Shown: piece by piece, positions 10,023 to 41,416 of the stretch
How the letters are laid out: every line of letters starts with the position of its first letter
Numbering within the stretch: the first letter of the stretch is position 1
Source of the DNA: an uncultured Chloroflexia bacterium
GTDB lineage: Bacteria > Chloroflexota > Anaerolineae > CG2-30-64-16
Direction: 5' to 3'
Assembly: GCA_963810095.1 (NCBI GenBank)
Contig: CAWEMM010000008.1
Coordinates: 96,001-160,000, forward strand
DNA length: 64,000 nt
Program-made: the position numbers and the translations under genes
Notes under the pieces: generated by a model
Database searches by the model: none
What the model saw: only the letters and a program-made list of their open reading frames with translations
What the model was told of the DNA's origin: nothing

Positions 10023-10491
10023 GACGGCGACGTATCACACTGAGGTCGAGTGGCGCGGGGAACACACGGGGCAGATCGTCATGGGCAACGGGCCGGAGAT
10101 GCCGTTCTCAGCCCCGCCCGATGCTTACGGGCAGGCCGGGGTGCTGACGCCGGAGGATGCTTTCGTGGCCGCGGCCAACACCTGCGTCATGATGATGTTC
10201 CTGTGGGCGTGTGAACGGTTCAAGATTGACCTGGTCGACTACCGCTGCCGGACCGAAGGGACCAAGAAGATCGAGCTCGACCGGACCGAAATCTTCACGC
10301 ACCTGCGCTTCTGGCCGCAGATTACCGTGCGCGCCGATGTCGACGGGGATGCGAGCAGCACCGAAAAGAGGGTTCACAAAGCCCTTGCGTCCGCCCAGAA
10401 GTACAGCCTCGTCGCCAACTCGGTCAAGAGCGAGATTGTCGTGGAACCTCACATCACGGTTCTCGCCGGCGCCGCCGAGGCAGTGCGATGA
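10015..10491 (+). CDS. OsmC/Ohr-family protein
   Basis: TPEDAFVAAANTC retains the first Cys; KYSLVANSV has Ser where the second Cys usually is. Confidence 0.82.
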   Translation: MAKTATYHTEVEWRGEHTGQIVMGNGPEMPFSAPPDAYGQAGVLTPEDAFVAAANTCVMMMFLWACERFKIDLVDYRCRTEGTKKIELDRTEIFTHLRFWPQITVRADVDGDASSTEKRVHKALASAQKYSLVANSVKSEIVVEPHITVLAGAAEAVR

Positions 10492-17463: not shown

Positions 17464-18243
17464 ATGAGCACGTATCCTAACGGTCGCGCACCGGAAATCT
17501 TCAGGCTGCTGGCGAACGATTTACGTTGGCAGCTGATCGTCGCGCTTGCCCGATCGGACCTTAAGGTGCAGGAATTGGCCGCTCGGACGGACCGGCCACA
17601 AAACCTCGTCTCCTATCATCTCAAGGAGCTCCGCGCGGCGGAGCTGGTTGTCGAGCGGCGTAGCAGCGCAGACGCGCGCGACGTCTACTATAGTCTCGAC
17701 CTCGGCCGGCTCCGCGACCGATTGCTCGAGAGTGGGCAAGTCCTCCATGCAGTTCTGGGAAGCTCCGGTCGGTCATCACGGATAATCGCCGAACGGGAAT
17801 TGCCCGTATCGGTCCTATTCTTATGCACCCGCAATAGTGCGCGCTCCCAGATGGCCGAAGCCCTACTACGGGCGCGCGGTCCGGCGTCGCTGCACGTCTG
17901 CAGCGCAGGCAGTGAGCCGGCTGCTGTTCATCCGTTGGCAATCGAAGCGATGGCCGAGATGGGCATTGACCTGCGCGGGCACGTGGCGAAGCACTTTGAG
18001 CAGCTCGTGGGGCAACACTTCGACTATGTGATCACGGTATGCGACCGCGTGCGCGAGGTCTGCCCCGTCTTTGCGGACGAATCCGAAGCGATCCACTGGA
18101 GCTTGCCCGACCCTGCAGCCGTGACTGGCTCGCCGGCCGAGCGCTATAAGGCGTTCCGGGAGACCGCCGCGGAGCTCACTACCCGCATTGATTTCCTATT
18201 GCCAGCCCTATTGAGTGACTATTCGAAAGGAAGAGACGCGTGA
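17464..18243 (+). CDS. ArsR-ArsC fusion protein
   Basis: N-terminal ArsR HTH (VSYHLKELR) plus LMWP domain CTRNSARS...VCD...VCP...DP. Confidence 0.88.
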   Translation: MSTYPNGRAPEIFRLLANDLRWQLIVALARSDLKVQELAARTDRPQNLVSYHLKELRAAELVVERRSSADARDVYYSLDLGRLRDRLLESGQVLHAVLGSSGRSSRIIAERELPVSVLFLCTRNSARSQMAEALLRARGPASLHVCSAGSEPAAVHPLAIEAMAEMGIDLRGHVAKHFEQLVGQHFDYVITVCDRVREVCPVFADESEAIHWSLPDPAAVTGSPAERYKAFRETAAELTTRIDFLLPALLSDYSKGRDA

Positions 18244-18695
18244 GCAAGGTGAACGTACTGTTCTTGTGCACCGGCAACTCGGCGCGCAGCCAGATGGCGG
18301 AGGCATTCCTCCGCGCGTATGGCGGCGAGCAATTTGAGGCGTTCAGCGCAGGGCTGGATCCGAAAGACATCAGCCCCTACACACGACAGGTGATGGCGGA
18401 GCGCGGCTACGACCTGGCCGGCCAGCGCTCCAAAAATGTCAGCGAATACCTGGCCAAGAAGCACTTCGGCTACCTGATCACCGTGTGCGGTCAGGCTGAG
18501 CAGAACTGCCCGCGGGCGTTCATGGGCATGGGGCGCCGCGTGCATTGGGACCTGGAGGACCCGGCGGCATTCGTGGGGACGGATGAGCAGATACTCGAAA
18601 AGTACCGTCAGGTGCGCGACGAGGTCGAGGCACGAGTTCGTGGTTGGGTCGCCGAGACGCGACCGACACTGCAGGGAGTGAATCTGAATGGCTAA
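18240..18695 (+). CDS. arsC: Thioredoxin-dependent arsenate reductase (LMWP family)
   Basis: CTGNSARSQMAE, VCG...NCP, DP. Confidence 0.9.
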   Translation: MSKVNVLFLCTGNSARSQMAEAFLRAYGGEQFEAFSAGLDPKDISPYTRQVMAERGYDLAGQRSKNVSEYLAKKHFGYLITVCGQAEQNCPRAFMGMGRRVHWDLEDPAAFVGTDEQILEKYRQVRDEVEARVRGWVAETRPTLQGVNLNG

Positions 18696-19116
18696 GCGAC
18701 GAGTGTTGTTTCTATGCACCGGCAACTCCTGCCGCAGCCAATTGGCCGAAGCGATCGTCAACGCGCGCCTGGGCGATGAGTGGGAGGCGTATAGTGCGGG
18801 TACGCAGCCAGCGGGCTATGTTCACCCGTTGGCCGTGAAGGTCTTACGGGAGAACGGTATCGAGCACGAAGGGCGCTCGAAGAGTGCCAACGAGTACCGC
18901 GACATGGCGTTCGACCTTGTCGTGACGGTCTGTGACGATGCCGCCGAGAACTGCCCGGTGTGGTTGGGCAAGGGGCGGCGGGTCCACCTCGGCTTTCCCG
19001 ATCCCGCCAAGGCAACGGGCAGCGCGGACGAGGTGCTGGCCGTGTTCCGGCGCGTGAGAGACGATATTGCACTCCGGGTCACTGAGCTTCTGGAGGAGAC
19101 AAAACTCGGGGCTTGA
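18688..19116 (+). CDS. arsC: Thioredoxin-dependent arsenate reductase (LMWP family)
   Basis: CTGNSCRSQ, VCDDAAENCP, FPDP. Confidence 0.92.
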   Translation: MAKRRVLFLCTGNSCRSQLAEAIVNARLGDEWEAYSAGTQPAGYVHPLAVKVLRENGIEHEGRSKSANEYRDMAFDLVVTVCDDAAENCPVWLGKGRRVHLGFPDPAKATGSADEVLAVFRRVRDDIALRVTELLEETKLGA

Positions 19117-19147
19117 CAAATCGCGAACTATATCGTATAAATACGAT
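19113..19147 (+). promoter_or_regulatory. Promoter plus ArsR operator
   Basis: TTGACA at 19113; palindrome ATCGTAT-AA-ATACGAT; related TCATCG-N8-CGATGA at 19609-19628 before arsM. Confidence 0.7.
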
Positions 19148-19183
19148 GTGAATTGCGAGAGCAGATAGGCGGGGTTGGACGAA

Positions 19184-19570
19184 ATGGACACGATCACATT
19201 GCAGGAACGACGTAACACCCAGGACGAAGAGCGGCTGGTGCAGATGTTGAAAGCGCTGGGCAATCCCATCCGCTTTCGGATCATGCAGACGCTGGCCGAG
19301 CGCAAGACGTGCATTACGCAGGAGATCGTCGACACCACGCCGCTCGCCCAGTCCACTGTCAGCCAGCATCTGAAAGTGCTACGCGAGGCTGGGCTGATCG
19401 ACGGCGAGACCGAGGGGCCGGCGACCTGCTACTGCCTCAGCGAGTCGGGCATCCGGTGGCTTAAGGAACAGATCGAAGGCTGGTTGCCAGGCTGCTGCAC
19501 CCCGAGCACTGGCAGGGTGCGCGACTTCGCGCCGGTGGACATCAAGGCGGCGAGCGGCTGCTGCAGCTGA
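19184..19570 (+). CDS. arsR: ArsR-family regulator
   Basis: KALGNPIRFRI, QSTVSQHLKVLREAG, GPATCYC, C-terminal CC..CC. Confidence 0.9.
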   Translation: MDTITLQERRNTQDEERLVQMLKALGNPIRFRIMQTLAERKTCITQEIVDTTPLAQSTVSQHLKVLREAGLIDGETEGPATCYCLSESGIRWLKEQIEGWLPGCCTPSTGRVRDFAPVDIKAASGCCS

Positions 19571-19656
19571 GCTACTCCGGCTTGACGGTGCTATTTTTTT
19601 GAGGTCAATCATCGTAATTAGCCGATGAAATCCAACCAAGATAGGGAGATCGCATC

Positions 19657-21165
19657 ATGACGACCATGAGCGTAACGGGCAAGGCCACTATGCCTCGGGC
19701 TTCAGCCGAGTACTTCGAACGGGTGGCGGGCGAGTGGGACAGCCTGCGCAGTGGCTACTTCGGGGAGGCCGTGCGAGACGCGGCGATTGCGCGGTCATAC
19801 CTGCGGCCAGAGATGGTCGTGGCCGACATCGGCTCGGGCACCGGGTTCATGGCAGCAGGGCTCGCGCCACTGGTCGCCAAGGTCTACGCGGTCGATGGCT
19901 CGGAGGCGATGCTCGAGGTGGCGCGCGAGAAGCTGGCGAGCTTCGGTAATGTAGAGCTGCAACTGGCCGATGGCGCGACGCTGCCGTTTGACGACGCGGC
20001 GCTGGATGCGGTCTTCGCGAACATGTACCTGCACCACTGCCCCGATCCACAAGCAGCTATCACCGAGATGGTGCGGGTGCTCAAGCCCGGCGGCCGCCTG
20101 GTGATCACGGACATGGACCAGCATGAGCACACCTGGCTGCGCGACGAAATGGCGGACGTCTGGCTGGGCTTCGCGCGGCAGGACCTGCGAGCGTGGTTCC
20201 GGACGGCGGGATTAGTGAACATCATCGTCGACCGCACCGGCGAGACCTGCAGTTCAAAGTCGACGAGCTGTGCAGGGGAAGGCATGGCGGATATCAGCAT
20301 CTTCGTTGCTACCGGCAGCCGGCGGGTGAGCGGTGCAAAGGACGCGGTGCAGGAGAATTACGGCGCGCTGGCGGTCAACGGGGGGTGCTGTGGCTCGACC
20401 TCATCGCAGAGCAGCTGCTGCTCGACGTCGGACAGCGGCTCGCCAGCGAGCGGCTCGCCAGCGAGCAATTGCTGTTCTCCCGCTTCGAACGCTATGGAAC
20501 TGGTCGAAGCCGGAGACCCGGACCTGGTCCTGTGGGAGACGGGGTACACCGCCGAGCAGATCAGCCTGGTGCCCGCCGAGGCGGTGAATCTCTCGCTAGG
20601 GTGCGGCAATCCGACGGCGATGGCATCGTTGAAGCCGGGCGAGACGGTACTGGATATCGGGAGTGGCGCGGGGATCGACGCCTTCTATGCAGCCAAGCGT
20701 GTTGGACCTGAAGGGCATGTGATTGGACTGGACATGACGCCGGCCATGATCGAGCGGGCGGAGCGATCCGCAGAGGAAGCGGGGCTGACGCAGGTCGAGT
20801 TTCGGCTCGGCCAGGCGGAAGAGATGCCGGTCGAGGATGGAACGGTTGACGTGATCCTGTCCAACTGCGTCATCAACCTCGCTGAGGACAAAGGCCGGGT
20901 CTTTGAAGAGGCGCACCGGGTACTAAAGTCGGGCGGGCGGTTGAGCATCAGCGACATGGTCACCGCCGGGCCGCTGCCGATGAGCCTTCGGAGCGATCCT
21001 GAGATGTGGGCGGGGTGTATCAATGGCGCCCTGCCCGAACGGGAGTATCTGGACCTGGTGCGGCAGGCCGGGTTTGTCGATGTGGTTGGGACGCGGAGCT
21101 TGAGCGGGGGCGAGTTGGAGGGTATCGAGGTGTACAGCCTGGGGGTCTCGGGGAGGAAGGGATAA
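19657..21165 (+). CDS. arsM: Arsenite S-adenosylmethionine methyltransferase fused to an N-terminal second class I methyltransferase
   Basis: Two SAM motifs (DIGSGTG; DIGSGAG); ArsM cysteines SLGCGNP, SNCVINL, WAGCING; CC-rich linker. Confidence 0.9.
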   Translation: MTTMSVTGKATMPRASAEYFERVAGEWDSLRSGYFGEAVRDAAIARSYLRPEMVVADIGSGTGFMAAGLAPLVAKVYAVDGSEAMLEVAREKLASFGNVELQLADGATLPFDDAALDAVFANMYLHHCPDPQAAITEMVRVLKPGGRLVITDMDQHEHTWLRDEMADVWLGFARQDLRAWFRTAGLVNIIVDRTGETCSSKSTSCAGEGMADISIFVATGSRRVSGAKDAVQENYGALAVNGGCCGSTSSQSSCCSTSDSGSPASGSPASNCCSPASNAMELVEAGDPDLVLWETGYTAEQISLVPAEAVNLSLGCGNPTAMASLKPGETVLDIGSGAGIDAFYAAKRVGPEGHVIGLDMTPAMIERAERSAEEAGLTQVEFRLGQAEEMPVEDGTVDVILSNCVINLAEDKGRVFEEAHRVLKSGGRLSISDMVTAGPLPMSLRSDPEMWAGCINGALPEREYLDLVRQAGFVDVVGTRSLSGGELEGIEVYSLGVSGRKG

Positions 21166-21287
21166 AGCGAGCGTTTCCCCGAGCGGCCGATCCTGCTCGT
21201 AACGACAAAGCGGGCGCCCGTCCTGATGACTGACTGCCCGTTGTTGCCCAAACTCATTGTCAGCACACAACTGGCGCGGCAGAGGGA

Positions 21288-21316
21288 TTGACCCGCGCTA
21301 GTCGTAGTGCTATGAT
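21288..21316 (+). promoter_or_regulatory. Sigma70 promoter
   Basis: TTGACC-N17-TATGAT with TG extended -10. Confidence 0.6.
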
Positions 21317-21352
21317 TTGCACAGGCGTAGGCTAACGCTGAAAGGAGATGGC

Positions 21353-21571
21353 ATGATGAAACGTCTTCAGAAAGCGATGCGGCCGGGCTACATTGAGGAC
21401 ACGCTGCAGGCGTGGGAGGACATGCGGGCCGAGGTCCTGCATGAGATCCAGGATGGCGGGCCGGTGCGGGAAGAACGGGTCGAGGCGGCCAGCGATATCG
21501 CGGCACATGTATTCCCGTGGGTGCTCGCCGAGCCGCAATCCGCTCGTCCAAGTCATGCTCACCGAAGGTAG
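21353..21571 (+). CDS. Small hypothetical protein (72 aa)
   Basis: AAGGAG RBS, downstream of the promoter; no recognisable motif. Confidence 0.55.
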   Translation: MMKRLQKAMRPGYIEDTLQAWEDMRAEVLHEIQDGGPVREERVEAASDIAAHVFPWVLAEPQSARPSHAHRR

Positions 21572-21622
21572 CTAGATCAAGCACGGGGGCCAGTGCAGGT
21601 CTGACCAGGCGCACAACCGTAT

Positions 21623-23033
<1,411 letters not shown>

Positions 23034-23039
23034 GTGCCC

Positions 23040-23660
23040 ATGACGCGCTTCGTCCTGGTTCGGCACGGTCAGACGGAGTGGAACCGGGTCGAACGGTTCC
23101 GCGGACGGGCCGATGTGCCGTTGAACGACGCCGGGCTGGCGCAGGCGGAGGCGACCGGGCGGCGGGTGGCCGAGGAATGGCAGCCCGCCGCCGTGTACGC
23201 CAGTCCGCTTAGCCGGGCATACGTGACGGCGGAAGCGATTAGCGTACGCTGCGGCCTGCCGGTGGCGCCGTTGGCCGGCGTGATCGATATCGATTACGGG
23301 GAGTGGCAGGGACTGACGCCCGAGGAGGTCGCCGCCCGCTGGCCAGACCTGCTGCACGCCTGGTATACCGCGCCGCAGACGGTGCAGGTCCCCGGCGGTG
23401 AGTCGCTGGCGGGACTGCGCGAGCGGGCCATGCGGTCTCTTTGTGAGCTGGTGGACCGGCACCGTGACGAGACAGTCGCGGTCGTGAGCCACACGGTGGT
23501 CAACCGGGTGATCCTGTTGGGCATCCTCGGGCTGGGCAATGAACGGTTTTGGCGGCTGCGGCAGGACAACTGCGCAATCAATGTGTTCGACGCGGACGCC
23601 AGCGATTTCACGCTGGTGACACTAAACGATACCAGCCATCTGCGCTGCGCTGAGAAATGA
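23040..23660 (+). CDS. Histidine phosphatase / phosphoglycerate-mutase family
   Basis: LVRHGQTEWN, SPLSRA, GGES, VVSH. Confidence 0.9.
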   Translation: MTRFVLVRHGQTEWNRVERFRGRADVPLNDAGLAQAEATGRRVAEEWQPAAVYASPLSRAYVTAEAISVRCGLPVAPLAGVIDIDYGEWQGLTPEEVAARWPDLLHAWYTAPQTVQVPGGESLAGLRERAMRSLCELVDRHRDETVAVVSHTVVNRVILLGILGLGNERFWRLRQDNCAINVFDADASDFTLVTLNDTSHLRCAEK

Positions 23661-23682
23661 GCCGCCGCGCACCTGGAACGAG

Positions 23683-24234
23683 GTGACCGTGAATAACTTA
23701 TGGCTTGAGCTGCGCATGGGGCCGAAAGCGCCTGATATCGTATATGCCATCGTCGAGTCGCCCAAGGGCCAGCGGAACAAGACGGAGTATAACATCAACA
23801 GTGGTGCGCTCGTGTTGAGCCGCACGCTCGCCTCGTCGCTGCACTACCCGGGCGACTATGGGCTCATCCCGCAGACCTTCTTCGAAGATGGTGAGCCCAT
23901 GGACATCCTGACCATGACCGGCGAGCCGACTTTCCCCGGCTGCGTCATCCAGGCGCGCCCCGTGGGCATTCTGCGACTGATGGACGCCGGCCATCACGAC
24001 GACAAGGTGCTGGCGGTGGCTGCCACGGACCCACTCTTCGCCGAGTACCAGGCGCTGAAGGACATCCCCCCTCACTTCCTGCGCGAGGTGCAGCACTTCT
24101 TCGAGACGTACAAAGACCTGGAGGGCGGCAAGCGCGCGCAGGCGATGGGGTGGGAGGACGCGGCGGCGGCCAAGGAGGCCATCCTGCGCGCCCACCAGGT
24201 GTTCTTGGAGCGTTTCAGTCTGAAGGGCCTGTAG
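23683..24234 (+). CDS. ppa: Family I soluble inorganic pyrophosphatase (DGEPMD variant)
   Basis: VESPKG, K.E, YPGDYG, DGEPMD, DDK, FFETYK. Confidence 0.92.
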   Translation: MTVNNLWLELRMGPKAPDIVYAIVESPKGQRNKTEYNINSGALVLSRTLASSLHYPGDYGLIPQTFFEDGEPMDILTMTGEPTFPGCVIQARPVGILRLMDAGHHDDKVLAVAATDPLFAEYQALKDIPPHFLREVQHFFETYKDLEGGKRAQAMGWEDAAAAKEAILRAHQVFLERFSLKGL

Positions 24235-24322
24235 GACAGCGGCATCGTAGGGCGCCTGAGAGACGAGCCTATGAGCCGCGAGCGCCTGGTGTGGAGGCGT
24301 GCAGCAATGCAGAGGGGAGTGC

Positions 24323-24697
24323 ATGACGAGGTTCCTGTTGATTGGCCTGGGCGGCATGGTGGGCGCGAATGTGCGCTACTGGCTGCAGCAATGGGCTGCC
24401 AACCGCTGGGGTGCGGCGTTTCCCTATGGGACGTTGATCATCAATGTGAGCGGGAGTTTCATCCTCGGTTTCTTCATCGTATTGGTCACCGACCGGCTCG
24501 CGGTCTCGCCCAACTGGCGTTACCTGATTGCGGTCGGGCTGTTAGGCGGCTACACGACCTTTTCGTCGTTCACGGTCGAAACGCTTACGCTGGCCGGGAG
24601 CGGGCGCCTGCTGCCCGCGTTGTTGTATCTGGGCGGCAATGTGGGGCTTGGCCTCATCTTCGCCTATCTTGGCATGGCACTGGCACGGGCGCTTTAG
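24323..24697 (+). CDS. crcB: Fluoride channel Fluc/CrcB
   Basis: GANVRY, PYGTLIIN, GLLGGYTTFSSF. Confidence 0.95.
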   Translation: MTRFLLIGLGGMVGANVRYWLQQWAANRWGAAFPYGTLIINVSGSFILGFFIVLVTDRLAVSPNWRYLIAVGLLGGYTTFSSFTVETLTLAGSGRLLPALLYLGGNVGLGLIFAYLGMALARAL

Positions 24698-24749
24698 GAG
24701 CGCCTGCGAGCGGAGCACGCGCTCCTGGCAGAGCGTTCGGAGGTGCGAG

Positions 24750-26026
24750 ATGGAAATCGTCGGGACTGCCAAGAAAGTGACGGTATACATCGGCGAGAGC
24801 GACCGCTGGGCCGGTAAGCCGTTGTACATGGCGATCTTGGAGGTGCTCAAGGCGGCCGACTGCGCGGGGGCAACAGTAACGCGAGGCGTCGCAGGTTTCG
24901 GCGCGCACAGCCGCATCCGGACCGCAACCATCGTCGACCTGTCGCCCGACCTGCCCCTCATCGTGGAGTGGGTCGACGACCCGGGGCGGGTCGAGCGTGT
25001 CATGCCGAAGCTGATCGAGATGGTCGCCGAAGGCATGATCACCTGCTCGGAGGTCGAGGTGCATGACTTACGGGCATCGCGAGCTGCGCCGGCTGCGGGC
25101 CTCGGCGCCGGTGCATGACTTGATGAGTCGCGAGGTCCGTTCTGTGCGGCCAGACACGAGCGTGGCGGATGCCGTAGAGATGCTGATCGGCAAGGCCTAT
25201 AAGGCGCTCCCCGTCGTCGACGATGAGCGCCGCGTGGTCGGGATCCTCACGGACGGCGACGTGCTGCGGCGATTGGGACTCCCGGCTGCTGGCGTGCAGT
25301 CGGCACTGACGCGCGCGGAGCTCGGCCGGGAGCTCGAGGCGCTGCGCCACAGCGGGCAGACGGTCAAGGATATCATGGTGAGCCCGGTGGTAACGACCAC
25401 GGAGGATGCGCCAATCGCCCAGGCCGTCAAAGTGATGACACAGCGGGGCATCAAGCGGCTGCTGGTCGTGGATCGGGACGGCCGGCTCATCGGCGTGGTC
25501 AGCCGGGTCGACGTGCTCCGTGCGTTAGCTCAGCCGGCCGTGGCGGAGGCCCCCCAAGCCGAGGTGCGGCCGGGGCACCACGTCCAGGTACGCGACGTGA
25601 TGGTGACGGAAGTGCCAAAGGTGCACGTCGATGCTGGGCTCAACAAAGTCGTGGACCTGCTGGTCAGCTCGGCCGAGCGCCGCATCGTGGTGGTGGATAC
25701 GGATGAACGGGTACTGGGCATCATCACGGACGGCGATCTGATCAAGCGCGCCAGCGGGACCGAACGCAGCGGGTTGCTGGGCGCCCTGAGCCGCCGGCTT
25801 AGCAGTGCAGAGGGAGTCAACCTTGCCGCTCGGACCGCGGGCGAGGTGATGACGGCTAACCCCGTCACGGTGACACCCGAAACCCGCCTGTTGGATGCCC
25901 TGCAATTGCTCTTGCGCGCACAAGGTCAAGCGTTTGCCTGTCGTGGACGACACGGGGCGGCTCGTGGGTCTCGTCGGTCGGGGCGAGATACTGCAGGCGC
26001 TCGCTTCCGAGCTGCCTGAGGAGTGA
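24750..26026 (+). CDS. DUF190 (PII-like) domain fused to four CBS domains (frameshifts near 25060 and 25915)
   Basis: YIGESD...GATVTRGVAGFG...SPDLP, then CBS repeats LPVVD..VGILTDGD. Confidence 0.85.
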
Positions 26027-26027
26027 C

Positions 26028-26471
26028 GTGCTCAACACGGCGCAGCGCGCGGCGATCACGATCGGCCTGCGCGCCTTCGAGATGCACTTGCACGAGATCG
26101 CGCGCTGGCTGCGAGGCGCACCGGATGCCGGCGTTCTGTTTTGGGAGCACCTTGATTTCAGCGACGAGGTGCGCATACAGGCCGAGGAGCAAGTTGCGGC
26201 TGCGCTTGCCCTGGTCGCGGAGCTGGCCCAGCGTTTTGAACTGGAACGGACCCCAATCGACCTGGGGGCGAAGATCACGGGCATGATGAGCGTCGACTGG
26301 GCCGACCTGGTGGACCTGCAGGCGAGCAAACTGCGGCGCTACGGCGGGGTAGCGGCTGAATTGAGTGGTTTGCTGGACGCCGATGTCGAACGACTCGCGG
26401 ACACGGCGAAGGAGCTGGCAAAGCTCAGAGGGGCTCCGAGCGGACACGGGGCGGCAGAAGTAGATGGCTGA
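26028..26471 (+). CDS. Hypothetical helical protein
   Basis: Clean ORF closely coupled to its neighbours. Confidence 0.65.
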   Translation: MLNTAQRAAITIGLRAFEMHLHEIARWLRGAPDAGVLFWEHLDFSDEVRIQAEEQVAAALALVAELAQRFELERTPIDLGAKITGMMSVDWADLVDLQASKLRRYGGVAAELSGLLDADVERLADTAKELAKLRGAPSGHGAAEVDG

Positions 26472-27144
26472 GCAGGACACGCTATTCCACGAAATCTTGG
26501 ACGCGCTCAAGGCGGGTGGCTGCCCGATATGCCGGCTGGGACACCGTGCGCGCGACGCGCTACATCGACACGCTCAACTACGAGGGCGTCAACGATCCGG
26601 GCCTGCGCGAGAGCCTCCGCAAGTCGCGCGGGCTCTGCAACCGGCATGCGTGGGAATGGTCGCATGTGCGCGGCAGCCCGCTGGGTGTTGCCATCGTTTA
26701 CCAGAACCTGGTCCGGGACCTGGCCGAGGTGGTCGCGAACGGCAAGGCTCGCTACCAGAGCAAGGCCATGGCCGTCGAGGAGTCGGGGGGCCGCTGGCTC
26801 CTGCGGCACGCTGTCCAGCCTGCGTGGCCGAAGACGATGCAGGCGACCGTTATGCGACGACGCTGCTAGAAGTACCTCGAAGGCCGGAGATCGACGAGGT
26901 GTACGTCAGATCGGGCGGACTGTGTCTGCTACACTTACGGGTGGCCGTCAACTTAGCGGACGTCGGGCAGATCACGAAACTGGCGAACTGGCAGGCGGCC
27001 GTGTATCGCGGGCTGGACGAGCAGCTCGGCGAGTTCATCCGCAAGCACGACTACCGGTTCGCGGGCGAGCCGATGGAGGCAGAGAAAGACTCGTGGACGC
27101 GCGCCGTGGCGGCAATCGCGGGCCAGGAGGAAGACGTGCGTTAG
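26464..27144 (+). CDS. DUF6062-like Cys/His Zn-binding protein (frameshifted)
   Basis: CPIC...YEGVNDP..GLCNRHAW; CPAC...GLCLLH...FIRKHDYRF...SWTRA. Confidence 0.7.
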   Translation: MAEQDTLFHEILDALKAGGCPICRLGHRARDALHRHAQLRGRQRSGPAREPPQVARALQPACVGMVACARQPAGCCHRLPEPGPGPGRGGRERQGSLPEQGHGRRGVGGPLAPAARCPACVAEDDAGDRYATTLLEVPRRPEIDEVYVRSGGLCLLHLRVAVNLADVGQITKLANWQAAVYRGLDEQLGEFIRKHDYRFAGEPMEAEKDSWTRAVAAIAGQEEDVR

Positions 27145-27644: not shown

Positions 27645-27744
27645 GGCGAAGGGGACCTCCTGCGGTCATTGGGCAGACCGATCGTGAGCAGAACCCCAGC
27701 GTTTTGATGTTTGCGCCTTAGGTGCTAAGATGCGCCCAACTGAA

Positions 27745-27840
27745 TAGGGATGAGGCTCCCGGCCGGGGCGAACGCTCCGGTTGTCGCAAGACTGATAGCC
27801 TCTACCAGTGCGCTACGGCACTGGTAGAGGCTTTTTTGTT
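27745..27840 (+). ncRNA. Fluoride riboswitch 2 with terminator
   Basis: GGGATGAGGCTCCC, inserted hairpin, GTCGCAAGAC-TGATAGCCTCTAC; terminator ending GGTAGAGGCTTTTTTGTT. Confidence 0.9.
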
Positions 27841-27872
27841 GTTTAGGGTTGGATCGGATCGTGAGGCGAGGC

Positions 27873-29099
27873 ATGAGCGACGATGTCGACGGAATGGCGG
27901 AGAAGGTTCCGGCGGACGCGTGGCTGAACCGCAACGTGGTCGGCATGGCGCTGGCCAGCTTCTTCAGCGACGCGGGGCACGAGATGGCGACCGCGGTGCT
28001 GCCATTGTTCCTGGTAGCAATCGGCGCACCGGCCGCAGCGCTCGGTGCGATCGAAGGCGTGGCGGACGCCGTCTCCTCCTTCGTGAAGCTGGGCTCAGGC
28101 TGGCTTAGCGACCAACTCGGGCGCCGCAAGCCGATCGCCGTTACGGGGTACGTGCTAACCGGCGTGACGACAGGATTGTTCGCGCTGACAACTACATGGC
28201 CGCAGGTGTTGGTGGTGCGAGCCGCTGGCTGGTTCGGCCGCGGCATGCGCGGTCCAGTGCGCGATGCGATGCTGGCAGATTCGGTTCCTGATGCGGCGCG
28301 CGGTCGGGCCTTCGGCTTCCACCGAGCCGGCGATACACTGGGCGCTATCGTCGGACCGTTGCTCGCCCTGCTCATGCTGCGACTGTTGGGCGGGCGCGAG
28401 ACGCCGGAAACGACCTACCGCCAGATCTTCTGGCTGACTCTCATCCCTGGTCTGCTGGCTGCACTCGCATTCGCAACCTTAGTGAAGGAACAGCGGCGGA
28501 CGGGCAACGGCAAGTTCAACCTGTTCCATGCAATCGGACGGCTCCCGACGCCCTTTCGACGATTCCTCCTTGGGGTAGGGATATTCGGAGCAGGCGACTT
28601 CGCACACAGCTTGCTGACACTCCGCGCCGCGACCATGCTGGCGCCGTCGCTCGGCGTAAACCAAGCTGGCCAGGTCGCAATCGGCCTCTACGCAGTGCAC
28701 AACATCGTCTACGCTGCGCTGTCTTACCCAATAGGCTCGCTCGGAGACCGCATCGGCAAGCGAGGCCTCCTCGCCTTTGGCTACAGCCTCGCGGGCGTAA
28801 TGGCGCTCGGCTGGATCTTCGCCGTGCCCTCAGTCTGGTACCTCGGCGTGTTGTTTGCGCTCGGCGGGGCGTTCATCGCGGCCGAGGATACGCTCGAAGG
28901 CGCGCTGGCCGGAGATCTGCTGCCGGTTGACGTGCGCGGCACGGGCTACGGCGTTCTGGCCACCGTGAACGGCGCTGGGGACTTCCTGTCGAGCCTGCTC
29001 GTCGGCCTGTTGTGGTCGGCCGTGAGCCCTGCCGCCGGCTTTGCTTATGCAGGTGTGCTGGCTCTTATCGGGGCGACCATCGTGTTTCGAGTGCGATAG
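27873..29099 (+). CDS. MFS transporter
   Basis: About 12 TM helices; GWLSDQLGRRK motif A; RGRAFGFHRAGD. Confidence 0.9.
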   Translation: MSDDVDGMAEKVPADAWLNRNVVGMALASFFSDAGHEMATAVLPLFLVAIGAPAAALGAIEGVADAVSSFVKLGSGWLSDQLGRRKPIAVTGYVLTGVTTGLFALTTTWPQVLVVRAAGWFGRGMRGPVRDAMLADSVPDAARGRAFGFHRAGDTLGAIVGPLLALLMLRLLGGRETPETTYRQIFWLTLIPGLLAALAFATLVKEQRRTGNGKFNLFHAIGRLPTPFRRFLLGVGIFGAGDFAHSLLTLRAATMLAPSLGVNQAGQVAIGLYAVHNIVYAALSYPIGSLGDRIGKRGLLAFGYSLAGVMALGWIFAVPSVWYLGVLFALGGAFIAAEDTLEGALAGDLLPVDVRGTGYGVLATVNGAGDFLSSLLVGLLWSAVSPAAGFAYAGVLALIGATIVFRVR

Positions 29100-29152
29100 G
29101 CGAGGAGAAACCAGATGGACGCCAAAGGCGGAATGAATTCGGAGGTTGCTTG

Positions 29153-30735
29153 ATGGCCGTCAGCGTGCCAGAGACTCGGATCAGCACGTCCAAGACGGCG
29201 TTCTGTAGCGTCCTGTTTCTGCGACCCGAGGATAGGACCGAGAGCGAGACGCGCGAGGAGCCGGCCTGCTTCGGCGATCTGAACCTCGACCAGGTCGTCG
29301 ATGCCGTGACAATCGGCAAGCAGGGCTATGACCTCAAACGCTTCTACTATACGCCCTTGCACGACGTGGACGCGATCCAGTACCGCCACGAGGTCATGCA
29401 GGACCTCGAACGCCGGACGCTGTTCGAGAAGATCGAGGAGTTCGCGCGCCGGATGCGGACCATGCGCGAGCATCTCAAGCAGGCCGAGAAGCTGTATTAC
29501 AAGCTGCAGAAGCAGCGCTGGTTCCTGGATGCGGTGAATACGTCTATTGCAGCGCCGTCCAGCCGCCTGGCCGAGGACCTGGCCGCGGAGAATCCGCAGT
29601 CGCGCGGGTTTGGAGCCCTGCGCGCCCACCTCGACGCGTACGTAGCCGGCGAACCTTTCCAGGTGCTCGCGGGCGAACTGCACGAGCTGCTCTCAGGCCT
29701 GGCCGGCGTGCGCTATGCGTTCGTGCTCAAGGGCCAGACGGTGAGCGTGCGGAAGTACGAGGAGGAGACCGACTACAGCGCCGAAGTGCTGCGGACTTTC
29801 GAGCGGTTCAAGCAGGGCGCGGTCAAGGAGTACCTGGCCGAATTTCGCGAGCCAGTGGACATGAACCACGTCGAAGCACAGGTGCTCGAGTTGGTCGCCC
29901 GGCTCTACTCTGACCTCTTTGGTCGCATCGAGAGTTACTGCACCCGGCACGTCGATTTTATCGACGAGGTGCTTGGCGTCTTCGACCGCGAGGTGCAGTT
30001 CTATATCGGGTACATCGACTTCATGCGGTCGTTGCAGCGGCGGGGCTTGCGGTTCTGCTACCCGGTCGTGTCGGCTGACAGCAAGGCTGTATCCAGCCGT
30101 GAAGGGTTCGACGTGGCGCTTGCGCGCAAGCTGGCGGGCGAAGAAGCGAACGTGGTCTGCAACGACTTCAGCATGCAGGGGGTGGAGCGGGTATTCGTGG
30201 TATCGGGGCCGAACCAGGGTGGGAAGACCACGTTTGCCGCGGGCTTTCGGCCAGCTGCACTACCTCGCCAGCATCGGCTGTCCCGTGCCGGGCCGAGAAG
30301 CCCACCTCTACCTGTTCGATCAGCTCTTGACGCACTTCGAACAGGAGGAGAACCTCACTAACCTGCGCGGCAAACTGGAAGACGAACTGGTGCGCATCCA
30401 TGAAATCCTCCAAGCGGCGACGCCGCGCAGCATCGTGATCATGAACGAGATCTTCACGTCGACGACGCTGCAGGACGCGGTCTTCCTGGGCGAGCGGGTC
30501 ATGCAGCGCATCCTCGACCTGGATCTCCTGTGCGTCTGCGTGACCTTCATCGACGAGCTGGCTGCGCTGAGCGACAAGATCGTCAGCATGGTCAGCACCG
30601 TGACGCCGGAGAACCCGAGCATGCGGACCTACAAGATCGTGCGGCGGCGGGCCGACGGGCTCGCGTACGCGATTTCGATCGCCGAAAAGCATCGCTTGAC
30701 CTACGAAGCGTTGAAGGAGCGCCTCGCGACCGTGA
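29153..30735 (+). CDS. MutS-related ATPase A (domain V, no mismatch-binding domain; frameshift near 30240)
   Basis: DLNLDQ N-terminus; [10 protein letters not shown]; GCPVPG; MNEIFTST; YAISIAEK. Confidence 0.85.
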
Positions 30736-32253
30736 AAGCCTTCCTGATGTATCCGCAGCGGGATTTCGACGTGAAGCAGGCGTTGCCGCCGAATGCAGAA
30801 GCCCTGGTGCAGGACCTCGAGCTCAGCACCTTGTTCGCCGCGATGGCGCACGGCGACAAGTTCCTGTTCGAGGTGGCCCGGGTTGCCGTTTTGTCCGGCG
30901 CGGACGCCGACGTGCGCACGATCCTGTATCGGCAGGGCGTGCTCAAAGACTGCCTGAACCATGCGGCGCTCATTCGGCAGATCTACGACTTGGCTGTGGA
31001 CACCATCGAACGCGAGAAGCATGTGTGGTGGGGCGCATTCGGGAGAATGCCGGACACAATACTGCACCGGTCGGTCGAAGTGCTTGAGCTATTCGTCGGC
31101 GTGCTCAAGACGTTGAGGCGGATCGCCGACGAGCATGTTTCAGGCTTCGAGTCGGAGGGCTTCAAGGCGTTCTTCGCCATGCTCCAGCGGGAGCTCGACG
31201 ACGTGTTCTTTGCCGAGGTCCAGCAGCACGTGCGCAATCTCAAGTTTCGCGACGGCATCCTGGTCAGCGCGCAGCTCGGCCAGGGCAACCGGGGGGTGGA
31301 CTACGTGCTGCGAAAGCCGAACCGCAAGCAAGGCAACTGGTTCCAGCAGGCATTGGGGCCGCGGCCGACCGCCTATTCCTTCCGTATCGCGGATCGGGAC
31401 GACAACGGTGCGCGGGCCCTCTCCGAGTTGCGGGACCGGGGCGTCAACCTGGTGGCAAACGCGGCCGCCCAGTCATGCGACCACATCCTTTCGTTCCTCA
31501 CGCTGCTGCGCACCGAGCTCGCCTTCTACGTGGGTTGTCTGAACCTGCACGACCGGCTACAGGAGAAAGCCACGGCAACGTCCTTCCCGGTTCCCTTGCC
31601 GCCGACGGAGTGCCGGCACACGGCGCGCGGGCTGTACGACGTTTGCCTGGCACTCGTCGTCGACCAGCCGGTGGTGGATAACGACCTGGACGCTGACGGC
31701 AAGAACCTTGTCGTCATCACCGGCGCGAACCAGGGGGGCAAGTCTACCTTCCTGCGGGCCATTGGCCTGGCCCAGACGATGATGCAGTGCGGCATGTTCG
31801 TGCCGGCCGAGGCGCTGACAGCGAACGTCGCGGATCGCGTCTTCACGCACTATAAGCGCGAGGAAGATGAGAGCATGAAAAGCGGCAAACTCGACGAGGA
31901 GTTGGGCCGGATGAGCGAGATCGTGGACCACATGACCCCGGATTCCCTGCTGTTGCTAAACGAGTCGTTTGCCGCTACGAACGAGCGGGAGGGATCGGAG
32001 ATCGCGAGGCAGATCGTCACCGCACTGCTGGAGCGCGGGATCAAGCTCTTCTACGTGACGCACCTATACACATTCGCCCGCGCGATGTATGATAAGAATC
32101 TATCTCATGCCCTGTTCTTGCAGGCCGAACGGCGCGAGGACGGCGAGCGCACGTTCAAGCTGGTTGCCGGTACGCCATCGCAAACGAGCTTCGGCCCGGA
32201 CCTGTACGAGAAGGTTTTTGCACGGGACGGCTCGGTCGGCCGAGGTTTCGTAG
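30732..32253 (+). CDS. MutS-related ATPase B (reads in frame with both neighbours in this assembly)
   Basis: GTG with AAGGAG; KAFLMYP..DF; [10 protein letters not shown]; [12 protein letters not shown]; VTH; SFGPDLY. Confidence 0.85.
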
Positions 32254-32270
32254 ACGCCGGAGTATCGCCC

Positions 32271-33959
32271 TTGGAAACCATTGTCACGGTCCTTCGGGAC
32301 GGCAAGCCGACAAACATCGGAGAGGACGCGCTGCGCAAGGGAGACACCTTGCTCCTCCAGGCGGGCGAACTCGTCGCGGCCGATCTGAAGCTGGTCGGGG
32401 CCAGGGGCCTGGAAGTCGACGAATGGGACCTGACCGGCGAGATCGTGCCCGTTGCGAAGCGCGTCGACGGACACGAGGACGTCTTCGTTTACCGCGGCAG
32501 CCGGGTGACACGCGGGAATGGCAGCGGCGTGGTCACGGCCGTCGGGGAAGCGACAGAGTACGCCCAGTGCGTGAAGCAGTCCTGGGAGCGCACGCGTTAT
32601 CGCCGGCCGTCGGCTCCTCACCCGGGGCTCCTTCGTCGTGTTGGCCCTCCTGGCGCCGCCCTTTGCCATGGCCGCGGTGCGGCACGAGAACGGGATCTTG
32701 CTGGGGCTCCTCGCCGCCGCCTTGGCCGTCCTCGCTGTCGTTCTTGAGAACAGCGCGCTGTTCGACTATGCGGTGACCGGGAAGGAAGTCAGCCGGATCG
32801 AGCAACAGGGCATTCAGATGCGTGACGTTGGTGCACTTGAAGTGATGGAGCGCCTGAATGTCCTGTGCGTGGACAAGACCGGCGTCCTGACGACCCGCGA
32901 CCTGAAGGTGAAGGAGATCTACCTGGCAGATGGTCCCTGCGAGCTGGCGGTACTTTGGCACCAACGAGGAGCCGGCCACGCTGGTCCGCACCGGCTGCGC
33001 GCTCTGCAACGACGTAATGTATGCCGAGAAAGCGAGCCTGGCCGCGCCGATCGATCGGGCCCTCATCGCGTTCGCGCGGGCCAGCGGGACCGACATCGCG
33101 GACGCGCACCAGACCTATCACAGGGTGTACGACAAGCCGTTCGATTCCGAGGAGCGCTACATGGCCTGTGGCTTCGAATCTGGCGAGAAGACCGTGTTCT
33201 TTGCCAAGGGCGACCCGGACGTCGTGCTGAAAATGTGCGGCACGTACAGCACGCCCTCGGGCAGTCAGCAGAAGCTAGACTTGCCTTTCTGGATATCCAC
33301 GCGAACTCATGCCGAATCGATCAGCAAGGCGGGCGACGTGGTCATGGCGCTGGCCTACGGCGTCGGGGGATCGGCGACACCTCCGCTGCACTACACGTTT
33401 CTCTGCCTGATCCAGCTCGAGAATCCGCTTCAGCCAAACGTGCCCGGCACGCTGCGCGAGCTCAGGGGGAGGGCATCCGTACTGTGATGCTGACCGGCGA
33501 TAGGACAGAGACCGCGTCAAAATCGCGGTCGCGGCCGGCATTGCCTCGGACGAGAGGCTGTGTCTGACCGGCCGGCTGATGGCGCACATGGGCGCGTTTG
33601 ATATCCGCGAGCAGGCAACCTTCATCCCCATCTTTGCGCGGCTCCTGCCATCACAAAAGGCGCTCATCGTCAGGCTATTGCAGCAGAAGAACAAGGTCGT
33701 GGCCATGGTGGGTGACGGGGCAAACGACACACTGGCGTTGAAGGCGGCGGACGTCGGCATGGCCTTTGGCAGCGACGCGTCGCCCATGGCGAAGCGGGTA
33801 GCCCCCATCCTCATCAACGACCTGGCCGATCTGGTTACGCTTGTTGAAGGCGGCAGGCGCATTCACGAGCGCCTGGGTGAACTGGCCATGTTCCGGGTCG
33901 CGCTGCTGATCGTGATGTTCCTGGGGCTGTATGGGTGGGTATATAGCTTGTTGAGATAG
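32271..33959 (+). CDS. Atypical, membrane-reduced P-type (HAD-IC) ATPase (several frameshifts)
   Basis: A-domain VLRDG...LTGE, DKTGVLT phosphorylation site, PFDSE, KG, MLTGD, GDGAND; only about 3 hydrophobic segments. Confidence 0.75.
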
Positions 33960-37266: not shown

Positions 37267-38892
37267 TCAATTGTGACGGACAACGCGGAAGAGGATGCAA
37301 GAGGTGACAGAGAAAGGACCGGCGGGAGAACGGTCGCCGGGGGTCCTGGCTGCCCAGGCGCCCACGCGACCCCGGCACAGTGGAGGCGCTGCGGGCTGTG
37401 CCGTCAGGTACGTCCAGCGTCCACGCTCCAAGACGCTCGAGCAGGCCCTCAATCGATCCGCCCGAAAGCCTGCCCAGGCCTCGACGGCGGACCGCGCGAC
37501 GTCCTCCGAAACGGGTGCGGCACTGTAGCGCGCTTGCATATAGGCGTCCGTAATCGTAGCCAGCGCGGCGCCTTGCTCCGGATGCGCAGCGCTCAGGCTC
37601 GCCAGGTACTCCAGCGGCGTGACGCCGGGCGGCGACCGCCCGCCCCGTCAGCAGCCCATGCCAGCAACGCCTGGTAGACCCGCCGGACCTGCGCGGCGGG
37701 ATCGTCTCCGACGACGGACGCGAAGGGCGGGGGCGCCTCAGTGCGTTTTCGGCCTTTAAGCAGGTTGCCCAGCTGCGCGTGGAGCAGGTCGAGTGAGAGC
37801 ACGCTCTCGCGCTGCTCTTCGACATCCTCCTCGCTGTAGGTGCGAAAACGGCGGAACGCCAGGGCGAACAAGAAAAAGACGAGCGCCGCAACGAGTGCGG
37901 CCCCGACTACGCGGAAGATAAGGTAGGCGGTCGGCGACAGGCCGGCCGGCTGTTGCTGTAGATCACCAAACTGGTCGGCCAGGCTCGGGGGTGTCTGGAT
38001 GTTGACATCCGATAGGGTGAGCGGCCGGAAGTGAAGGACCAGGCCGACGAGGCCGCCTACTTTGAACACGACCCAGGCGATGGCAAGGATAACCCAATAG
38101 AGGATTCGTGCGACTATGTCGAGCACGCCGGACAGCGCGGCCATAAGCTTGCTGACGGCCGAGGGCGTAAAGAGCTGCGCCAGCAGCAGGCCGCTCACTA
38201 ACAAGGCTGCGATGACCACGACCACGGTGACAGCCCAATAGCGTGTCAGGCGGAAGGCTGATGGGTCGGGCGCCCCTTGAGCGCGCGCGGTGCTGCGCAA
38301 GCTGGCGATGGCGAGGCTTGCGAGCCCCAAGGCAAAGAACGCCAGGATGGGCGACAGCATGGCGCCCAGGCCTACGGGATCAAGCGCATAGTGCCAGATT
38401 GCCGCTCCGCCCAGGGCAAAGACGCCCAACGCGAAGTTGGCCGCATAGGTATCGTAGCCGGGGGTATCGCGGCCCGCAAGCAAGCCCCACCACCACAGCC
38501 ACGCTGCGAAGATGACGATCACAATGGCCTCGAGCGGCTGGTTTGCGAGCGAGAATAACCAGGCGCGGCTCCAGAGCGGGAAGCGCGCCGCTGCCGAGCG
38601 CCGCGTAGAGGGTGAGGGCGATCGCGAGCAGGCCGGCGCACGCGACAAGCAGCTGGCCTTGGCGCTCCGAGCGAATCCGGAAGGCGGCGGTCTCGGCTGC
38701 GGCTGTACTCAGAGCCAGGAGCGCAAGGATGATGGGGAAGCCGATCAGCTCACCGTGGCCAGGACCCCGGACGGATGCACTAAGGACGAAGAGCAGGGCA
38801 TAGACCCAGACGGCTCGCATGCCGGCAAGGAGATACGGCAGAAGGCCGTTGTCGATCGGGTGCCACTTGCGATCATGCAGGTCGAGACGCAT
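37267..38892 (-). CDS. DUF4129-type multi-pass membrane protein (frameshifted; 3' end uncertain)
   Basis: Many TM helices, then VRRVYQALL...TPLEY...ITDAYMQARYS C-terminal motif; third gene of the moxR operon. Confidence 0.7.
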
Positions 38893-40105
38893 CGAGCACG
38901 AGCTCCGTCAGGTGGTTGTAGGCCGAGCGGCCGCCGATCCAGAAGGTCGGAATGTCAGGAGAAAACGTGCGCGGTGGCGCGTCCCCGACGGTGACCAGCC
39001 CGACCGGATGGCGGGCTGCGCGCACGTCCAGCAGTACGGCGGCAAGGTCGGTATTGGGCACCGCGGTAATGACAAGGACGGTTGCGCCGAAGGGGAGCCG
39101 CGGCGTCTCGACCTGGAGCATGTGTTTGAAATCGGCTGCCGTGAGCCCGGACAAGCGGGCGAGGCCATCCAGGATATCGAACCAGTGATCGGGCCGGCGC
39201 GAGGGCGGGAGGCGCAGGGTGAGCGCTCCCGTCCCGCGCCACCCCCCGTTCACGTAAAGTCCGACCGCATGGCGCTGGTCGAGCAAGTGGCGCGCCAGTG
39301 ACGCCGCGGCACTGATCCCGTATTCGAGGTATTCGGGTACGTAGCCCGGCGAATCGGGTAGTGTGCGAAGGTCAAGGAACAGGCCGGTCACCTGCGCTGC
39401 GCTGGGATCGAAAGTCCTGGTCTGGAGCTCGCCCCGCCGGGCGGTGGCGCGCCAATGAATCGTGCGCAAGCTGTCGCCTGCTGCGTAGGCACGGACGCCG
39501 GAAATCCGCAGCGGATCGTCGGCCACGCGGCGCAAGGCCTTCTCGTCGCCGAAAGGATACCCGGCGGGCAGCCGGAACGGTGCAACGGGCACGACGCGTG
39601 GGTAGACGATGAGGCGGTCTACTTGGAGCACCTCCTGCTGTTGATCGCGGAACCCGAACATATCGCCTGAGCTAATCTCGGCCGGGCCAAATTCCAGCGC
39701 GCCGCGGTGCACGGCCTGGATCCGGTACCGCTTGCGGATGCGTTGGTAGAAGCGTAGCGAGACGATGTTGATCAGCAGGCGGCGCCCCGGCTTCCAGTGA
39801 TAGTGTAGCGTCCCGCGCAGGAGCTTGACCTCGTTCGGCCACTCATCCTCGACCTTGAGCCAAGATAGCGGCAGCGGCTTAGCGTTGACGATCTCGACCG
39901 TCACGTCCGTCTCCTCCCCAACAAAGAGCCGGGGTTCGCCAAAGTGGCGGGTGTAGGTGACCCCCGCGAGGGCGTAGCGGTCCCAGAGCCCGGTTACGAT
40001 CGCGAGCAGGAGCAGCAAGACGCCGGCCAGGAAGAGCAGGGGGTTGCGCAGCACGAGCGCAATTGCGAGCGCCAGGAACGTCAGCCACTTGAGAAGACGG
40101 CTCAC
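38873..40105 (-). CDS. DUF58-domain protein
   Basis: N-terminal TM; VYPR; GVRAYAAGDSLRTIHWRATARRGEL. Confidence 0.9.
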   Translation of the reverse strand: MSRLLKWLTFLALAIALVLRNPLLFLAGVLLLLLAIVTGLWDRYALAGVTYTRHFGEPRLFVGEETDVTVEIVNAKPLPLSWLKVEDEWPNEVKLLRGTLHYHWKPGRRLLINIVSLRFYQRIRKRYRIQAVHRGALEFGPAEISSGDMFGFRDQQQEVLQVDRLIVYPRVVPVAPFRLPAGYPFGDEKALRRVADDPLRISGVRAYAAGDSLRTIHWRATARRGELQTRTFDPSAAQVTGLFLDLRTLPDSPGYVPEYLEYGISAAASLARHLLDQRHAVGLYVNGGWRGTGALTLRLPPSRRPDHWFDILDGLARLSGLTAADFKHMLQVETPRLPFGATVLVITAVPNTDLAAVLLDVRAARHPVGLVTVGDAPPRTFSPDIPTFWIGGRSAYNHLTELVLDASRPA

Positions 40106-41135: not shown

Positions 41136-41215
41136 AAACAAAAAGCCTCTACGGAACCGGTCCCGTAGAGGCCATCAGTCGGCAGTCCGACGGTTGACAG
41201 CGAGCCTCATCGCAT
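41136..41215 (-). ncRNA. Fluoride riboswitch 4 (minus strand) with terminator, upstream of moxR
   Basis: Reverse complement: GCGATGAGGCTCGC-TGTCAACC-GTCGG/CCGAC-TGATGGCCTCTAC, then GCCTCTACGG...CCGTAGAGGC-TTTTTGTTT. Confidence 0.9.
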
Positions 41216-41237
41216 GGCGACTGCGTCGCCGAGCAAC

Positions 41238-41288: not shown

Positions 41289-41302
41289 GGGACTAATCGA
41301 AT

Positions 41303-41399
41303 AAGGGATGAGGCTCCCGGCCGGCGCATCGCGCACGGCCTGTCGCAGGACTGATAGCCTCTACCGGCGCGTTGCCGCGTTGGTAGAGGCTTTTTTGTT
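41303..41399 (+). ncRNA. Fluoride riboswitch 3 with terminator
   Basis: GGGATGAGGCTCCC...GTCGCAGGAC-TGATAGCCTCTAC...GGTAGAGGCTTTTTTGTT. Confidence 0.9.
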
Positions 41400-41416
41400 A
41401 CGGTGTGGAGGTCAGT

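Follow-up and report, generated by a model that had tools for sequence, protein, structure and literature searches.

A fluoride-riboswitch operon of a Chloroflexia bacterium encodes a second family I pyrophosphatase with a predicted remodelled nucleophile site

The closest described system is the FRM operon of Enterobacter cloacae, which has the order riboswitch-ppaC-uspA-eno-gpmA-crcB-orf5249 and is induced by fluoride (PMC5533749, available sections). In that operon as in the one described below, a riboswitch heads genes for a pyrophosphatase (PPase), an enolase and a phosphoglycerate-mutase-like protein together with crcB, and the ordinary copies are kept. According to the same sections, the PPase of E. 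cloacae is a Mn-dependent family II enzyme encoded by the first gene, whereas the PPase reported here is a family I enzyme with an Asp-to-Glu exchange and stands fourth in line. Furthermore, the present operon additionally encodes a DUF190 protein and a CBS-domain protein and lacks uspA, and fluoride induction, which was shown in E. cloacae, is predicted here. In the available sections of PMC5533749 and PMC11139923, riboswitch-linked PPases and enolases are explained as extra copies of the inhibited enzyme and not as an altered enzyme; the accessible part of a review counts PPase among the most frequent gene partners of fluoride riboswitches. Yeast becomes fluoride-tolerant either by overexpression of IPP1 or by its replacement with the fluoride-insensitive PPase of S. 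mutans, as reported in the accessible part of PMC11857102. The replacement is a parallel to the present case inasmuch as an insensitive PPase raises fluoride tolerance; it differs in that the enzyme belongs to another protein family (family II, to which fluoride-insensitive isozymes have belonged so far) and the setting is engineered. In the literature searched, neither a natural family I PPase with the Asp-to-Glu exchange nor a fluoride-tolerant family I isozyme was found. The operon type is already known from E. cloacae; the Glu-type family I PPase within it is the new part.

The window, i.e. the whole stretch of 64,000 nucleotides of an uncultured Chloroflexia bacterium analysed here, carries on its plus strand an open reading frame for a 183-amino-acid family I inorganic pyrophosphatase (ppa, 23683..24234), which matches PF00719 with 170.8 bits (cut-off 23.5) over profile positions 1-150 of 153. 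The best solved relatives among the PDB matches are archaeal PPases (E 7e-54). With the NCBIfam model NF002317 (equivalog cut-off 200) the protein reached 143 bits; the canonical copies, namely the housekeeping PPase of the same genome (164 bits) and a riboswitch-linked canonical PPase (173 bits), also remained below this cut-off, which does not discriminate among the PPases compared here. The start of ppa is probably GTG 23689: this codon is preceded by GAGG, and the database protein P0284, which equals the window's PPase, and all homologues start with MNNLW.

Codon 71 of ppa is GAG (23893-23895), and the family motif reads DGEPMD with Glu in place of the middle Asp; codon 46 is AGC (23818-23820), which gives L-S-R in the window and L-D-R in relatives. 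With Glu and Ser at these two sites, the full canonical active-site set, including the D-x-D-x-x-D triad, is not present. Alignment A4 shows no variation at any of the other catalytic positions. All three observations, i.e. the Glu codon, the Ser before the Arg and the otherwise intact set of catalytic residues, had been made in a sequence-only reading of this DNA and were confirmed by the codon reading, the profile match and the alignment. That reading had also stated that the middle Asp holds the nucleophilic water and that fluoride replaces this water, with which the available text of two publications agrees: in yeast PPase, the attacking water is held by Asp117 together with two metals (PMC11210485), and fluoride takes the place of the nucleophilic water (PMC6770254).

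Read contigs over ppa are thin and fragmentary, and a single divergent record, which ends at 23897, extends as far as the GAG codon. The junction between the phosphatase gene and ppa is bridged by contigs from two runs of two studies, one of which may be the source sample, so that the operon arrangement is not an assembly artefact. We take the GAG site to be D67 of E. coli and D117 of yeast PPase, and the AGC site to be D42 of E. coli, in a numbering that also covers Y30 and K34 of E. coli; this numbering is consistent with the offsets of the PDB match (query 10-170 on chain 5-168). In the yeast variant D117E, attributed to Tuominen 1998 and Pohjanjoki 2001, the Glu carboxylate reportedly displaces the bridging water, the enzyme is slower and the change in fluoride binding is the largest. 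Engineered Asp-to-Glu variants of PPase are reportedly much slower enzymes, and E. coli D42N is reportedly more active with weaker Mg2+ binding. Given the assumed numbering, D117E has the same substitution at the same water-holding residue as the window's PPase. It is, however, a single laboratory mutation, whereas the natural enzyme has additionally lost the Asp before the Arg and departs from its relatives at three further conserved positions. These extra changes may compensate for the Asp-to-Glu exchange; by analogy with the slower engineered variants, the natural Glu form could also be a poor PPase.

The ppa gene lies in a row of genes with the order fluoride riboswitch, enolase, histidine phosphatase, PPase, crcB, DUF190 and CBS. 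From 21720 to at least 26471 every gene is encoded on the plus strand, and the junctions are overlapping or short. The first gene (21720..23033) encodes the second enolase of the genome (Pfam Enolase_N and Enolase_C; TIGR01060, 654 bits) with a likely start at GTG 21750, ahead of which AGGAGG is found. The other enolase is encoded on contig C2, and the genome also harbors a second crcB. The following gene (23034..23660) encodes a protein of the histidine-phosphatase superfamily (PF00300, 208 bits), either phosphoglycerate-mutase-like or phosphoserine-phosphatase-like, for which every NCBIfam match stayed below its cut-off. Downstream of ppa are the genes for a CrcB/Fluc fluoride channel (24323..24697, frame open from 24299; PF02537, 98.9 bits; TIGR00494, 101 bits with a cut-off of 80.45), a DUF190 protein (24639..25118; PF02641, 120.8 bits) and a protein with four CBS domains (25063..26019; four stretches matching PF00571). 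The last one (26028..26471) is a conserved ORF of 147 amino acids, for which no match was found in Pfam and NCBIfam; it is syntenic in the sister genome G022 (85% identical, same order). No terminator-like sites were found between the phosphatase gene, ppa and crcB. The location of the Glu-type PPase inside a fluoride-riboswitch/crcB operon is supported by these data.

A Cys-rich DUF6062-like ORF is located at the tail of this operon (26464-27144, +), and another one lies beside the housekeeping enolase on contig C2 (L088, 555-1637, -). Directly upstream of the operon (17464-21165) is an arsenic-type gene set, including genes for an ArsC-type low-molecular-weight phosphatase (18688-19116), an ArsR-family regulator (19175-19570) and a double methyltransferase (19657-21165). 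This region looks like an island for stress and toxic anions.

The aptamer ahead of the enolase gene (riboswitch A, crcB motif, 21616..21688, +) matched RF01734 with 26.7 bits (E 3e-4 in a 7-kb search), which is below the Rfam gathering score of 34, and an RF01734 search of the whole window at gathering level found nothing. The low score results from a 13-nt extra hairpin inserted between P1 and the linker. The same element was found in G022 (25.6 bits). A hand-made regular expression recovered only four of the eight known riboswitch copies; instead, a covariance model (R1) built from eight elements (two of the window, one of G022 and five of G430, a genome from another family of the Chloroflexota) was used. 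Among 16 hits aligned to R1, 94.6% of the cells were paired, 9 of 14 pairs were changed on both sides and 0 of 500 shuffles scored as high, values to be read with the caveat that helices 1 and 3 were fitted by R1 and that the 16 rows include a probable false match (20044-20107). This weak match (20044-20107, -) was rejected as a riboswitch; it is antisense within the methyltransferase ORF and the loop is absent. The pseudoknot helix, which is outside the R1 model, was 97.8% paired, with changes on both sides in 4 of 6 pairs. Compensatory changes across the aligned hits hence preserve P1, P3 and the pseudoknot of riboswitch A.

A terminator hairpin with a T-rich tail (21671..21716, +) was obtained in the MFE and the centroid fold of 21610-21730 (z-score -3.24). 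The 3' pseudoknot strand of the aptamer is contained in the 5' arm of this terminator, which points to a transcriptional ON switch: the expression platform competes with the aptamer, and the downstream genes for CrcB, DUF190, CBS protein and enolase provide a fluoride-related context. Riboswitch A and its terminator are predicted to form a classical fluoride ON switch. The description of the PPase as riboswitch-controlled is upheld in so far as ppa is part of an operon headed by riboswitch and terminator; it needs qualifying in that the aptamer scores below the gathering level and is located thirty bases upstream of the enolase gene and 2 kb upstream of ppa. Co-transcription of ppa from the riboswitch is a well-founded prediction, as terminator-like sites are absent from the phosphatase-ppa-crcB stretch.

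Three other fluoride riboswitches were found in the window. Riboswitch B (27737-27840, +; 38 bits with R1, terminator stem 27797-27832) was missed by Rfam at E <= 1. The genes behind it, which run to 32747, encode an MFS transporter (27849-29099, +), an unassigned ORF (29012-30361, +) and an ORF with matches to MutS domain V and E1-E2 ATPase (29919-32747, +). Riboswitches C (41159-41223, -; 30.6 bits with Rfam) and D (41296-41370, +; 34 bits with R1) are divergently oriented, each with its own terminator. The former is followed by genes for a MoxR-type AAA_3 ATPase (40102-41079) and a DUF58 protein (38873-40105), the latter by an unassigned ORF of 229 amino acids (41405-42094). A MoxR/DUF58 operon under fluoride control, as predicted here, would be unusual.

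The genome holds two PF00719 genes. The housekeeping PPase, encoded on contig C11, has the canonical DGDPLD and LDR and is 69% identical to the Glu-type copy, in line with the earlier proposal of a second isozyme beside a housekeeping enzyme. Among the best 120 database proteins, Glu was present at the site only in the six nearest (71-93% identical; five with DGEP, one with DEEP), all of which lack the Asp before the Arg, and both sites are Asp in the remaining 114. Beyond these six, four Glu-type sequences were obtained from cluster members and one from G022, and together with the window's own the set comprises 12 distinct sequences (window = P0284, P0121/P0285, P0001-P0006, P0273, P0274, P0281 and P0283). 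Glu is present and the Asp before the Arg is lost in 12 of 12 of them, compared to 0 of the 116 closest Asp-type relatives. Because of this occurrence throughout the clade, Glu at the nucleophile site appears to be neither chance nor sequencing error. Only five positions that are at least 90% conserved in the 116 Asp-type relatives are changed in the clade (S to Q/E/H/A, Y to T/M/L, K to I, D to S/N/K and D to E); three of these otherwise conserved positions are in the neighbouring hairpin, and the D-to-E change was found in 8 of 8 clade rows versus 0 of 116 Asp-type relatives.

In a quick IQ-TREE tree of 80 rows, from which 57 even-numbered proteins among P0007-P0120 were left out, all eight Glu-type rows group together (SH-aLRT 100), and the stem leading to them has a length of 0.36 changes per site. 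This group is nested in a group of 23 rows (SH-aLRT 99) that includes the housekeeping PPases of the family. Given the nested position and the long stem, the Glu type is a local duplicate with an early phase of rapid evolution and a later, calmer one; it is a small clade derived from a duplication of the lineage's own housekeeping PPase. For the Glu-type orthologues of the window and G022, dN/dS was 0.116 (dS 0.72), compared to 0.036 (dS 0.89) for the housekeeping pair, and the Glu-type gene is under purifying selection (dN/dS 0.12). Since the dS values are similar (0.72 and 0.89), the gene is probably older than the split of the window's species and G022. Fixation and selection of the Glu and Asp-loss changes are supported by these comparisons.

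Outside this clade, Glu at the site is rare. It was found in 0 of 80 genome loci listed, in 0 of 80 metagenome matches listed and in 6 of the 160 stretches matched among 150 diverse representatives; most of these six representatives show further damage at the catalytic site, and P0140, P0166 and P0217, for instance, are visibly degenerate. A search of 37 genomes of the order yielded the Glu type in G000 and G022 only. With a degenerate pattern, it was found in G000 and G430 only among 401 sampled genomes of the phylum, and in G000, besides one spurious match, among 401 sampled genomes of the class. A pattern match in G769 was rejected as a Glu-type PPase, as the protein is not a PPase. G430 encodes two closely related PPases of its own, one of which (P0272) contains DGEPLD and combines the D-to-E change with D to Q at the Asp before the Arg, whereas its sister copy keeps both Asp residues. 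A second lineage of the Chloroflexota has thus made the same two changes independently, in a duplication of its own. That separate duplications made the same pair of changes argues for a functional coupling of the two sites and for selection of this state.

The link to fluoride is less consistent across relatives. In G022, a sister species of the same genus, the operon is present at 90% nucleotide identity but without ppa: 21278-23630 and 24312-26435 of the window align to contig 40 of G022, and the 681 nt between the phosphatase gene and crcB that contain the ppa cassette (23631..24311, +) correspond to approximately 40 nt, a single-gene indel. The Glu-type orthologue of G022 (84-86% identical) is encoded on another contig, where it neighbours a GNAT gene and a divergently transcribed ABC-transporter operon. 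No match to RF01734 was found within about 9 kb around this gene at E <= 0.1, and the R1 model gave no significant match at this locus (best 13.7 bits, E 0.11). A perfect 27-bp inverted repeat with arms approximately 50 nt apart is located between a modA-like gene and this stand-alone ppa (L121, G022 contig 39, about 10260-10390); nothing comparable is present in the window or in G000, and the repeat may act as a regulatory hairpin or represent a small mobile element.

The fluoride island of G430 has five RF01734 hits, four of which are above the gathering score. The Glu-type gene is not encoded on this island but on a different contig of 12.6 kb, on which no riboswitch was found. There, it is accompanied by a start-overlapping MFS gene (L204, G430 contig 48, 3756-5581, +), the product of which shares 38.5% identity, over 376 residues, with the MFS transporter behind riboswitch B of the window; this likeness might tie the Glu-type gene of G430 to fluoride, albeit weakly. 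A gene of the PEP-mutase/isocitrate-lyase family and a LysR regulator gene also adjoin this PPase gene. On contig 46 of G430 (L222, 9662-12031, -), a fluoride riboswitch (40.9 bits) is followed by two small membrane ORFs and a 499-amino-acid ORF with an N-terminal degenerate PPase-like domain (PF00719, 17 bits; Asp triad lost), which could represent a pseudo-PPase in a fluoride regulon.

In three near-identical metagenome loci (L170-L172), which represent one lineage, the gene for a fully canonical PPase (DGDPLD, DR, KYE) follows an RF01734 hit of 43.9-44.7 bits at a distance of 44-46 nt. Like the window, these loci place a family I PPase under a fluoride riboswitch; unlike the window's enzyme, their PPase has all canonical residues and the riboswitch immediately upstream. 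Riboswitch linkage therefore does not depend on Glu, nor does Glu occur only where such linkage exists, and plain extra copies of PPase do serve in fluoride regulons. The expectation that DGEP co-occurs with crcB riboswitches largely fails, since only one of the three Glu-type genes with readable context is linked to fluoride genes (window yes; G022 and G430 no).

Taken together, the window's gene is best described, as judged from the comparisons above, as a genuine paralogue that is linked to a riboswitch and has a remodelled nucleophile site. We consider it an even chance that this PPase, induced via the riboswitch, keeps the hydrolysis of pyrophosphate going under fluoride. According to this model, the aptamer pseudoknot would form and the terminator would not when cytoplasmic fluoride rises, and enolase, phosphatase, Glu-type PPase, CrcB, DUF190 protein and CBS protein would then be transcribed together. 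Fluoride would bind less well to the altered water site, and the Glu-type enzyme would hydrolyse pyrophosphate while the canonical copy is inhibited, i.e. target replacement would act on top of dosage and export. This reading is favoured because the substituted Asp is the holder of the fluoride-replaceable water. It is weakened by G022, where the operon has no ppa and the Glu-type gene is found elsewhere without a riboswitch, by G430, where the Glu-type gene is off the fluoride island, and by the canonical Asp-type PPase behind a bona fide riboswitch in L170-L172. Extra enzyme as the published explanation, given in the available sections of PMC5533749 and PMC11139923, also weakens the reading of an altered enzyme.

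That the operon copy only adds PPase, with the Glu and its companion changes as tolerated drift and fluoride sensitivity unchanged, seems rather unlikely to us. Such a dosage effect is what the canonical PPase directly behind the L170-L172 riboswitch would represent, overproduction accounts for the riboswitch-linked PPases and enolases in the two papers just cited (same sections), and overexpression of IPP1 alone makes yeast fluoride-tolerant (PMC11857102, accessible part); the rate of non-synonymous evolution in the Glu-type pair is, moreover, about three times that of the housekeeping pair. Drift, however, would leave unexplained why Glu is fixed in all 12 clade sequences against Asp in 116 of 116 close relatives, why the changes are concentrated at five otherwise conserved positions and why both substitutions recur independently in G430, and a dN/dS of 0.116 indicates constraint. 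The paralogue might instead have been neofunctionalised for another metal, pH range or phosphoanhydride and have come into the fluoride operon by an accident of recent rearrangement. Two of the three readable contexts lie outside fluoride loci (GNAT/ABC transporter in G022, MFS in G430), ppa is a clean one-gene indel between two species and the stem branch of the clade is long, all of which would fit; we nevertheless hold this to be unlikely, given that the insertion falls precisely at the junction of two riboswitch-operon genes and is retained with the frame intact and terminator-like sites absent around ppa, that the G430 MFS offers a weak tie to fluoride by its likeness to the riboswitch-B transporter and that the substituted residue is the very one tied to the fluoride-replaceable water.

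A catalytically dead or regulatory pseudoenzyme that binds pyrophosphate, metal or fluoride is the most improbable of the alternatives. The Asp that holds the nucleophile is replaced, other Glu-bearing representatives (P0140, P0166, P0217) are degenerate and a degenerate PPase-like domain is encoded in the fluoride island of G430. On the other hand, the window's protein keeps all other catalytic residues, Glu is a conservative replacement, and 69% identity to the housekeeping enzyme and a dN/dS of 0.116 speak against a dead enzyme.

A Glu-type enzyme less sensitive to fluoride would mean that resistance is reached not only by making more enzyme but also by swapping in an altered target. It would then also offer a naturally occurring, selected counterpart of a classic mutant of mechanistic studies, complete with compensating changes. 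More tentatively, and with doubt outweighing confidence, PPases with Glu and without the Asp before the Arg might constitute a recurrent, convergent class of naturally fluoride-insensitive isozymes which arise by duplication of housekeeping PPases and are wired to riboswitches in some genomes. In that case they would be an example of target-replacement resistance to an inorganic anion, with the first natural fluoride-resistant family I PPase. If the reading holds, a compact family I PPase would be available for fluoride-tolerant strains and organofluorine work, a need stated in the available sections of PMC11139923.
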